From: Bacteroidales bacterium
GTDB lineage: Bacteria > Bacteroidota > Bacteroidia > Bacteroidales > 4484-276
Assembly (NCBI GenBank): GCA_036794825.1
Contig: DAIRGA010000012.1
Coordinates: forward strand, 60,489 to 124,488
DNA: 64,000 nucleotides
Reading direction: 5' to 3'
The translations under genes and the position numbers were made by a program. Shown in pieces: positions 2,921 through 4,192 of the stretch. A model generated the notes under the pieces. It saw only the letters and a program-made list of their open reading frames with translations. It did no database searches and was not told the origin of the DNA. The number at the start of each line of letters is the position of its first letter. Position 1 is the stretch's first letter.

Positions 2921-4192
2921 ATGAGAAATTCTATTGTGCTTTTAATCAAGTTGTTGCTCGTCAGCTCACTCGCTATATTTTTATTCACGTCATTTACTGA
3001 TGACAACGAATATGCTGAAGAAAAAAACACCTCCGGAACTGTGACCTTCACCGCTACAACGCTGAACGCTGGCGGGACTTACGCTCCAAGACATGTTCTT
3101 GCTATCTGGGTGGAGAAGAACGGTGTTTTTGTCAAATCCCGCAAGGTAATGGCCAACCAGCGGAAACAATACCTTTATAAATGGGTAGCTTCGAGTAATT
3201 ACAATGTGACCGATGCCATAACCGGCGCTACGCTCACCCAGCCTCAGACCCATACTGTGCAATGGAACTGCACTGATCTGAGCGGGAATGTGGTTCCTGA
3301 CGGCGAGTACACCATCCTGATTGAGTTTACTGATAAGCATGCCCAGGGGCCATATTATGCGGTAAATTTTCAAAAGGGAACAGCGCCGCAAAGCATCACG
3401 CCCCCCAACCAGCAGTACATCATCAATATGCAGCTCACCTACACGCCTGATGTTATAGTAACTGCTGATTTCAGCGCTAACATTACGCAAGCGTGTGAGC
3501 AGCAGCCGGTGATCTTTACCGATAATTCAACCGGAGCAACTTCGTGGCTCTGGAACTTCGGCGCAGGAAGCAACCCGCCAACCGCCACCACCCAGGGACC
3601 GCACACGGTTACCTATTCCACACCTGGCGCCAAAACAGTTTCGCTTACCGTAAACGGCACTGTAACCTCCACCAAAAACGATTACATTCAGATTGAGCCA
3701 ATACCGGTGGCCGGATTTATTTTCGAAGTTGTCGAAAACATCGCCATTTTTGCCAACACCTCCCAATTTGCCACATCCTGGCTCTGGGATTTCGGCGATG
3801 GAGAAACAAGCACAGAGTTTAACCCCATTCATCAATACTGGCAAAACGGCGAATTTACCGTCACGCTGACAGCAACCAGCGATGATTGCGGCAGCGATAC
3901 TTTCAGCGATGTTGTTATTATTACCGGGGTTGGCATTGATGACCGGGATCAGCAGACATTTGAAATTTTTCCCAACCCAACTGCCGGAGCTTTAAACATC
4001 TTTTTTCAAAAAAATATGGATCAGGCCGGTATAAGAGTATTTGATCTGCAAGGGCGCACCGTCTTTAGCAGCCAATTGAATATCAACGGCAAAGCATCTG
4101 CTTTCCTCGATCCCGATCTGAAACCCGGATTATACCTGGTGGAGGTGCAGATGGACGGCAAAAACTACCGCCGGAAATTAATTGTGAATTAG
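2921..4192 (+). CDS. DUF2271 + 2 PKD domains + T9SS type A C-terminal domain
   Basis: Signal peptide MRNSIVLLIK...; DUF2271-like block YAPRHVLAIWVEK...YLYKW...DAITGATL; PKD motifs SWLWNFG and SWLWDFGDG; CTD FEIFPNPT...G.Y.VEV...RKLIVN. ATG 2921 preferred over track start 2855. Confidence 0.8.
   Translation: MRNSIVLLIKLLLVSSLAIFLFTSFTDDNEYAEEKNTSGTVTFTATTLNAGGTYAPRHVLAIWVEKNGVFVKSRKVMANQRKQYLYKWVASSNYNVTDAITGATLTQPQTHTVQWNCTDLSGNVVPDGEYTILIEFTDKHAQGPYYAVNFQKGTAPQSITPPNQQYIINMQLTYTPDVIVTADFSANITQACEQQPVIFTDNSTGATSWLWNFGAGSNPPTATTQGPHTVTYSTPGAKTVSLTVNGTVTSTKNDYIQIEPIPVAGFIFEVVENIAIFANTSQFATSWLWDFGDGETSTEFNPIHQYWQNGEFTVTLTATSDDCGSDTFSDVVIITGVGIDDRDQQTFEIFPNPTAGALNIFFQKNMDQAGIRVFDLQGRTVFSSQLNINGKASAFLDPDLKPGLYLVEVQMDGKNYRRKLIVN

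Follow-up and report, generated by a model that had tools for sequence, protein, structure and literature searches.

A DUF2271 protein with a predicted flavinylation site and a type IX secretion signal, encoded beside a cytochrome island in Bacteroidales

The DUF2271 protein of Amantichitinum ursilacus is flavinylated by its cognate ApbE whereas its Thr-to-Ala mutant is not, and the [S/T]GA[S/T] site is conserved (Méheust et al., PMC8238504). According to a 2025 review, the motif used by ApbE is D-x-x-[S/T]-G-A-[S/T], with flavin mononucleotide (FMN) attached to the last residue. Seven residues are enough for the enzyme, the acceptor is the only strictly essential one, and replacement of the alanine by valine leaves about 50% flavinylation (PMC12052999). 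ApbE-flavinylated proteins are known from the periplasm and the inner membrane of Gram-negative bacteria and from the surface of Gram-positive bacteria. Here we describe a gene located on a 64-kb stretch of Bacteroidales DNA (contig DAIRGA010000012.1; the whole stretch is referred to as the window), which encodes a DUF2271 domain followed by two PKD domains and a type A C-terminal domain (CTD), the sorting signal of the type IX system of protein secretion (T9SS). The explanation that we favour, and to which we give a little better than an even chance, is that the product is a flavinylated, T9SS-exported surface or secreted protein forming the outer end of an extracellular electron-transfer chain together with a neighbouring cytochrome island.

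The features of the gene and its surroundings are collected in Table 1. The identical protein was found on four public contigs originating from four samples, with the start codon called identically. An upstream in-frame ATG at 2855 was not backed by the N-termini of homologues, and two antisense open reading frames (ORFs) lying inside the gene (2990-3490 and 3527-3844) were unsupported. In the AlphaFold model a single helix (residues 2-23) precedes the DUF2271 domain, and the N-termini of the homologues are similarly hydrophobic. Pfam scans, which took in all 45 large ORFs of the window, matched PF10029 (DUF2271) to residues 59-161, covering profile positions 20-128 of 136 with a score of 30.7 bits (gathering score 27.3); relatives of the protein have precomputed PF10029 matches. 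The model of this domain was of high confidence (predicted local distance difference test score 95.3, predicted template-modelling score 0.91). No solved structure matched the N-terminal domain significantly, either in profile searches against the sequences of the PDB or in Foldseek searches with the whole and the N-domain models. The PDB profile search with the window protein returned CTD matches and weak FlgD/Fn3 matches, and nothing else. PKD_4 was matched in two stretches with 72.8 bits (cut-off 27), the better stretch being residues 283-330. With the CTD matches described below, all parts of the fusion that the first-pass annotation had read from the letters scored above the Pfam and NCBIfam cut-offs.

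Table 1. Features of the DUF2271 gene, its product and selected neighbours (positions in the window)
Feature	Position	Strand	Basis
Gene of the DUF2271/PKD/PKD/T9SS type A CTD protein, 423 residues, signal peptide	2921-4192	+	ORF list, Pfam, NCBIfam
Sec-type signal peptide, residues 1-26, MRNSIVLLIKLLLVSSLAIFLFTSFT, without lipobox Cys	2921-2998	+	read by eye
DUF2271 beta-sandwich domain, residues 36-178	3026-3454	+	PF10029
ApbE motif D-A-I-T-G-A-T; predicted FMN acceptor Thr104, codon 3230-3232 (ACG)	3212-3232	+	motif D-x-x-[S/T]-G-A-[S/T]
Pro108 (CCT), His in 90/92 relatives	3242-3244	+	alignment column counts
PKD domain 1, residues 181-260	3461-3700	+	Pfam PKD_4/PKD, boundaries by eye
Second exact motif match D-N-S-T-G-A-T, residues 201-207, before the PKD signature W-L-W-N-F-G-A-G	3521-3541	+	motif match
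PKD domain 2, residues 261-337, without flavinylation motif, ANTSQFATSWLWDFGDG	3701-3931	+	Pfam best stretch residues 283-330
T9SS type A C-terminal sorting domain, residues 349-423	3965-4189	+	PF18962, TIGR04183
Candidate Bacteroidetes-type promoter: TTTG 2807-2810, 21 nt, TACTTTTG 2832-2839	2807-2839	+	by eye
ImcH-like inner-membrane cytochrome, 500 residues	1178-2680	+	PF03264 NapC/NirT, heme motif count
Hexaheme c-type cytochrome lipoprotein, 342 residues, lipobox ITGC	13-1041	+	six CXXCH, Cytochrome_C7 match
gldD, gliding-motility lipoprotein gene	38305-38886	-	PF25593 GldD_lipo, 208 bits

The sequence DAITGATLT occupies residues 98-106 (nucleotides 3212-3238), exactly where the first-pass annotation had placed it. 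At least one match to D..[ST]GA[ST] occurred in 0.4% of 20,000 shuffles of the window protein, and a chance match was ruled out by the conservation of the motif across the family. In the alignment of 92 relatives the Asp is present in 89, the Gly in 91 and the Ala in 81 sequences (Pro in 6, Ser in 5), and the final Thr is invariant (92/92). It is also kept in four further aligned sequences, two of which are canonical DUF2271 proteins encoded next to apbE. One canonical protein, that of Deinococcus ficus (plasmid pDFI1, L093), is encoded between a gene for FAD:protein FMN transferase and a PepSY-associated gene. The window domain is 30% identical to it (E 1e-10), the Deinococcus sequence D-T-V-S-S-A-T falls opposite D-A-I-T-G-A-T, and no sequence of the joint alignment deviates from Thr in the acceptor column. 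Two statements of the first-pass annotation, that DUF2271 is an ApbE substrate and that FMN is carried by the last Thr of [S/T]GA[S/T], agree with the experiments and the review cited above. Flavinylation of Thr104 in the window protein is thus predicted, and we regard it as likely.

Two collections of profiles identified the CTD: PF18962 (Por_Secre_tail) matched residues 349-422 with 46.8 bits (cut-off 27), and TIGR04183 matched residues 349-423 with 46.6 bits (cut-off 23). The top Foldseek match of the CTD was 8glk_D, the CTD of the substrate NucA in the structure of the T9SS translocon (TM score 0.87, E 2.9e-5); the same chain was matched in the profile comparison (E 7.5e-9). PKD spacers, like those preceding the CTD, are typical of surface proteins. 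Two further proteins encoded in the window (28320-31478 and 32441-36556) end in a CTD; this additional cargo and gldD, a gene of a type that occurs with T9SS, are a sign that such a system exists in the organism. None of the core genes sprA/sov, porV, porU and gldKLMN was found in the 64-kb window. We predict that the protein is very probably exported as T9SS cargo.

The combination of DUF2271 with a CTD is not a single case but characterizes a large family. A search with the N-terminal domain yielded 94 relatives, mainly DUF2271+CTD proteins of about 260 residues from metagenome-assembled genomes (MAGs) of Bacteroidales. A profile search for the family gave 805 clusters at 90% identity, and a scan of one genome per species detected a relative in at least 191 species. 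The first-pass annotation had proposed to count such fusions and their neighbours. By a family hidden Markov model, the CTD was present in 79 of 86 distinct loci, which excluded that the fusion is unique. The 86 loci comprise 47 long forms (at least 330 residues, with PKD or Ig spacers) and 39 short forms. In the databases the family members are named just 'DUF2271 domain-containing protein'. The nearest species representatives are Lentimicrobiaceae MAGs (73-77% identity), and relatives were also found in named organisms, Tenuifilaceae bacterium CYCD (complete genome) and Draconibacterium orientale.

The two nearest relatives of the DUF2271 domain are encoded in the same MAG, GCA_964419945.1 (L009, 7847-8446, 76%; L010, 7891-8598, 71%). 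In these proteins a dockerin-like segment replaces the PKD and T9SS tail. The assignment is based on a weak Dockerin_1 match in one of them (P0002) and on the sequence alone in the other (P0001). Dockerins are likewise extracellular anchors, and with the dockerin-like end the same domain would carry a different sort of anchor at its C-terminus. On a JGI contig (L011, 10001-11276) the homologue is split into a 243-residue DUF2271 ORF and, overlapping it, a 189-residue ORF with PKD and CTD. A long-form gene seems to have been interrupted here by a frameshift, either genuine or introduced by assembly.

Three short forms (L012, L069 and L080, that is 3 of the 86 related loci) are located directly before apbE. 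In L012, the complete genome of Tenuifilaceae bacterium CYCD, and in L069 the gene order is thioredoxin-like, DUF2271, ApbE, DUF4266, DUF3570. L080 begins at the DUF2271 gene, leaving the thioredoxin gene out of view, and the remaining order is the same. The DUF2271 proteins of all three loci score above the TIGR04183 cut-off, and ApbE has a signal peptide in both loci checked (L012 and L069). Clusters of the thioredoxin-like/ApbE/DUF4266/DUF3570 type have been described around flavinylated DUF3570, a proven ApbE substrate (Méheust et al., PMC8238504). Around the window gene there were no thioredoxin, ApbE, DUF4266 or DUF3570 genes. PepSY-like and DUF4198 genes were likewise absent from the window, from L001 (the locus that reaches upstream of the window start) and from the conserved neighbours of the 86 loci.

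The conserved neighbours of some long forms are cytochrome genes. The same island adjoins the DUF2271 gene in 12 long-form loci, the window's included, and in one partial locus. Its genes encode a Crp regulator resembling FNR, two lipoproteins (one hexaheme, one monoheme), a DUF5777 protein of about 290 residues that starts with a signal peptide and ends in Phe, a monoheme cytochrome c, a C-terminally anchored heptaheme cytochrome, a cytochrome b of the PF01292 family and a 500-residue NapC/NirT-related cytochrome. Part of the island lies upstream of the window start (L001, 3662-7062) and the remainder at 13-2680. Among the loci having at least 4 kb on both sides, the island was found with 10 of 31 long forms, compared with 0 of 28 short forms. 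The DUF2271 gene is placed in three ways relative to the island: downstream on the same strand, as in the window; upstream beside the regulator; or convergent. On its opposite side each locus has different, unrelated genes; because this flank is not conserved, broad synteny was rejected as the cause of the adjacency. In the upstream arrangement (7 loci) the DUF2271 gene is separated from the Crp-like regulator by a conserved ORF of about 235 residues with a signal peptide, whose product, by eye, looks like an outer-membrane beta-barrel protein.

Several members of the island resemble, by architecture, the inner-membrane quinol oxidoreductases ImcH and CbcBA of Geobacter. The protein encoded at 1178-2680 contains three hydrophobic helices at its N-terminus, an adjoining CX3CH and six CXXCH motifs; its gene is the immediate neighbour of the DUF2271 gene in 7 loci, counting that of the window. 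Homologues of ImcH are 495-519 residues long, with three transmembrane segments, one atypical CX3CH and six CX2CH motifs (PMC6295460). The C-terminally anchored 7-heme protein, followed by the diheme-b-type PF01292 cytochrome b, forms a CbcA/CbcB-like pair, and CbcBA-homologous clusters of Bacteroidetes have been considered a possible marker of extracellular electron transfer (preprint, 10.1101/2021.04.15.440034). A Lentimicrobium MAG with 15 multiheme cytochromes, among them those of a giant porin-cytochrome cluster, was reported in a study mentioning neither flavins nor T9SS (2026, PMC13013709). The hexaheme lipoprotein belongs to the island in 12 loci. Both lipoprotein cytochromes have acidic mature N-termini (C-E-Y-E-F-V-E and C-T-K-E-G). 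In Bacteroidota, acidic N-termini of lipoproteins can mark surface exposure. For DUF5777 no literature was found. We put the chance that the window protein is a functional partner of this island at about even. The first-pass annotation, whose motif and fusion are confirmed and whose redox idea is supported here, had missed the breadth of the family and the cytochrome partner, with its two multiheme genes immediately upstream, as well as Pro108 and a further ApbE motif in PKD domain 1 (see below).

From the domain architecture, the conservation of the motif, the homology of the site and the gene neighbourhoods we infer flavinylation, export, a cytochrome partnership and an extracellular acceptor. 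In the proposed scheme the precursor would pass the inner membrane via Sec, and a periplasmic ApbE would link FMN to the DUF2271 beta-sandwich through a phosphoester with Thr104. The folded flavoprotein would then be recognized by its type A CTD and taken over the outer membrane by the T9SS, whereupon the tail would be cut off and the protein anchored to the surface or released. The two PKD domains may serve as a stalk that keeps the flavin domain off the membrane. In this Lentimicrobiaceae-like lineage of Bacteroidales the neighbouring cytochrome chain would end, on the outside, with this protein, whose bound flavin would hand electrons to insoluble or extracellular acceptors; the reverse flow would also be possible. 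Periplasmic flavinylation followed by export, as originally suggested, is supported by the comparative evidence, both steps being predictions from sequence.

A number of observations weigh against this scheme. The PF10029 score of the window protein passes only just above the threshold. Pro108, four residues past the acceptor Thr, replaces a near-universal His; this is a one-base change (CCT versus CAT or CAC) and not a read error, because the same protein is encoded on contigs from four samples. In 11 of the 12 cytochrome-linked relatives the site reads TG[S/P]T, not TGAT. Neither the window nor the 10 kb preceding the gene contained apbE, and about 70 of the 86 loci have no redox gene nearby. 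In a rough neighbour-joining tree the ApbE and the cytochrome linkages are each limited to one clade, which points to few independent events and to long-retained associations. The DUF5777 barrel is far smaller than the barrels of porin-cytochrome conduits of the MtrB type; with only about 290 residues it leaves electron passage across the outer membrane unexplained. The DUF2271 gene is separated from the cytochrome genes by a 240-nucleotide gap containing a promoter-like site, so it is probably transcribed on its own. The candidate was judged against the Bacteroides consensus TTTG/TAnnTTTG, a sigma-70 promoter scan being uninformative for Bacteroidota. No hairpin or terminator was found between the ImcH-like gene and the DUF2271 gene. 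Since the gene is divergent from or convergent with the island in other species, co-transcription is not implied. Finally, we know of no T9SS cargo with a covalent redox cofactor, and none was encountered in the literature search.

Some of these points are also what would be expected if the protein were flavinylated and exported but acted independently of the cytochromes, as an assimilatory surface ferric reductase or an iron-mobilizing protein, roles suggested for the canonical DUF2271/PepSY systems, or as a scavenger of oxygen or oxidants, the adjacency being inherited synteny. The apparent promoter and the confinement of the cytochrome linkage to one clade suit such a role, as does the absence of cytochrome neighbours from most family members, including all short forms; the two nearest relatives, with the dockerin-like tail, lie among unrelated genes. 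Genes for iron uptake are linked with canonical DUF2271 clusters (PMC8238504), and a multi-FMN protein can take O2 as acceptor (PMC12052999). However, the adjacency has been kept through two or more rearrangements, during which the opposite flank was completely replaced, and in the conserved-neighbour analysis no PepSY, DUF4198 or TonB-receptor gene adjoined any of the 86 loci. An isolated surface flavoprotein would, moreover, be left without an evident supply of electrons across the outer membrane. We consider an independent role possible but unlikely.

Other alternatives question the earlier steps. The DUF2271 domain might be unflavinylated here, an Ig-like beta-sandwich passenger, for instance an adhesin or structural surface protein, in which D-A-I-T-G-A-T is kept for folding or binding. 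Its weak similarity to FlgD Ig-like, DUF3244 and Fn3-type domains would fit this, and so would the marginal Pfam score, the lost His108, the change of the motif Ala to Ser or Pro in most long forms and the lack of a nearby apbE. Against it stand the acceptor Thr, invariant in all 92 relatives and in the four further sequences, and the three CTD-bearing members directly upstream of apbE, in clusters whose DUF3570 is a proven ApbE substrate (PMC8238504). The acceptor is, in addition, the one residue that ApbE strictly needs (PMC12052999). Loss of flavinylation appears improbable to us. It could also be that the CTD is not a working signal and that the protein stays in the periplasm, where canonical DUF2271 proteins reside (PMC8238504), as an ordinary carrier for the adjacent cytochromes. 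This is hard to reconcile with a CTD that scores at twice the curated cut-off, matches the substrate CTD solved in the translocon and is kept in 79 of 86 loci. The nearest relatives, too, exchange it for a dockerin-like segment, and the PKD spacers speak for a surface location. Periplasmic retention seems to us highly improbable, and export to the surface with delivery of electrons from the island is still preferred.

A second exact match to the ApbE motif was detected in PKD domain 1. D-x-S-[ST]-G-A-[ST] occurs at the same place in 12 related long-form loci, and one protein has two such repeats. As a background, 150 other multi-PKD proteins were drawn from an exhaustive PKD1 search (18,876 PKD-bearing proteins at E <= 0.001); they contained the motif at 9 of 1299 PKD signatures (0.7%). 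It was present in none of the eight PKD repeats of another protein encoded in the window. The clade with the canonical PKD1 motif is precisely the one in which the DUF2271 site has changed to TG[S/P]T. That seven residues are enough for ApbE (PMC12052999) supports the PKD1 site as a candidate. Because D-x-S-T-G already comes with the PKD consensus, and because the relatives are orthologues, the match is no more than suggestive. Thr207 may be a second flavinylation site, and the long forms could hold two or more flavins.

One could go further and view the long forms as multi-flavin surface wires, with the flavins of Thr104 and Thr207 chained on the stalk beyond the outer membrane. Their electrons would come from cytochrome lipoproteins exposed on the surface or, where short forms cluster with ApbE, from flavinylated DUF3570; the DUF3570 proteins of these clusters end in Phe, as outer-membrane barrels often do. 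We find this combined proposal quite unlikely. If its DUF3570-fed variant were true, it would amount to a heme-free, all-flavin route across and beyond the Gram-negative outer membrane.

The rest of the window was also inspected. A direct repeat of about 145 nucleotides (4187-4331 and 7277-7420, 91-92% identical) flanks polA (4427-7216) in intergenic DNA. It contains nested perfect hairpins with arms at 4214-4227/4250-4263 and 4254-4269/4292-4307, and may represent either a short intergenic repeat element or a terminator structure common to both places. The genes at 12296-15948 encode parts of a Na+-translocating decarboxylase (carboxyltransferase, OAD gamma-like, biotin carrier and OAD beta), which fits an anaerobic, fermentative member of Bacteroidales. 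Two very large hybrid histidine kinases (809 and 1319 residues, three receiver-domain matches each) are followed by cheR and cheB (16770-24612); here a methylation pair of the chemotaxis type is joined to a phosphorelay, in a lineage without flagella. The two additional CTD-bearing proteins mentioned above are, in their order along the DNA, a 1052-residue PKD+CTD protein and a 1371-residue C25 (gingipain-family) peptidase with GEVED, CarboxypepD_reg and CTD domains. A 1617-residue protein (46945-51798) consists of DUF5060 and eight PKD domains and gave no CTD match.

In the literature searched, no paper joined flavinylation with type IX secretion beyond citation, none of the listed papers on DUF2271 dealt with T9SS, and no description was found of a flavinylated protein exported past the Gram-negative outer membrane. 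The first-pass annotation, too, knew of no described example. PF18962 or Por_Secre_tail did not occur in the searched text of the Méheust supplement, which is not proof of absence. If the proposal is true, the family represents a new class of T9SS cargo and provides a candidate terminal component of extracellular electron transfer for Bacteroidales, which are abundant in digesters and sediments and some of which have ImcH/CbcBA-like cytochromes of unknown output. The combination of DUF2271 and CTD would then be a simple marker in metagenomes. Since relatives are present in Tenuifilaceae bacterium CYCD and Draconibacterium orientale, the idea is directly testable.

Comparison with described systems places the protein between several of them. 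With the canonical DUF2271 proteins of PepSY clusters (Amantichitinum ursilacus, Deinococcus ficus L093) it shares the Pfam family, a domain of beta-sandwich size (about 135-145 residues), the signal peptide and [S/T]-x-A-[S/T] after an Asp at the homologous position. The canonical proteins, however, are single-domain periplasmic proteins of about 190 residues encoded with apbE, a PepSY-like protein and often DUF4198, whereas in the window protein two PKD domains and a T9SS tail follow the DUF2271 domain, the identity is 30%, and the gene has cytochrome genes next to it and no apbE or PepSY neighbour. The thioredoxin/ApbE/DUF4266/DUF3570 ('DsbD-type') clusters are related through the three T9SS-tailed short forms, which sit between the thioredoxin-like gene and apbE; the genes listed as typical for such clusters do not include DUF2271 (PMC8238504). 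Like the T9SS type A cargo exemplified by gingipains and NucA (8glk), the window protein consists of a Sec signal, a passenger, Ig-like spacers and a beta-sandwich CTD of about 75 residues. Known cargo proteins are mainly hydrolases, adhesins and motility proteins, unlike the covalent redox cofactor carrier proposed here.

On the cytochrome side, the 500-residue neighbour has the layout of Geobacter ImcH (three transmembrane segments, CX3CH and six CXXCH), and the 7-heme, C-terminally anchored cytochrome followed by the PF01292 cytochrome b corresponds to CbcA/CbcB of Geobacter. The island differs from these in gene order and in its partners, namely the DUF5777 barrel, the hexaheme lipoprotein and the DUF2271 protein. 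Where the porin-cytochrome conduits of the Mtr/Pcc type have a large barrel encoded with periplasmic and extracellular multiheme partners, the island has the 290-residue DUF5777 protein and the hexaheme lipoprotein. MtrC and OmcA of Shewanella are decaheme lipoproteins of the outer surface that bind flavin non-covalently, are secreted by the type II system and receive electrons through the conduit with the 26-strand MtrB. They resemble the proposed arrangement in that a flavin at the outer face is proposed to pass the electrons of a cytochrome chain to minerals; in the window protein the flavin would be covalently bound and carried by a heme-free domain. PplA of Listeria monocytogenes and other multi-flavinylated proteins of Gram-positive bacteria are flavinylated by ApbE/FmnB, lie on the surface and form the last protein step, as is proposed here (cited in part in PMC8238504). 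They use FMN-bind domains and lipid or cell-wall anchors in cells that have no outer membrane, whereas the window protein would use DUF2271 and the T9SS route in a diderm cell. As proposed from these sequence comparisons, a known ApbE substrate domain would here have a new compartment, a new export route and a new set of partners.

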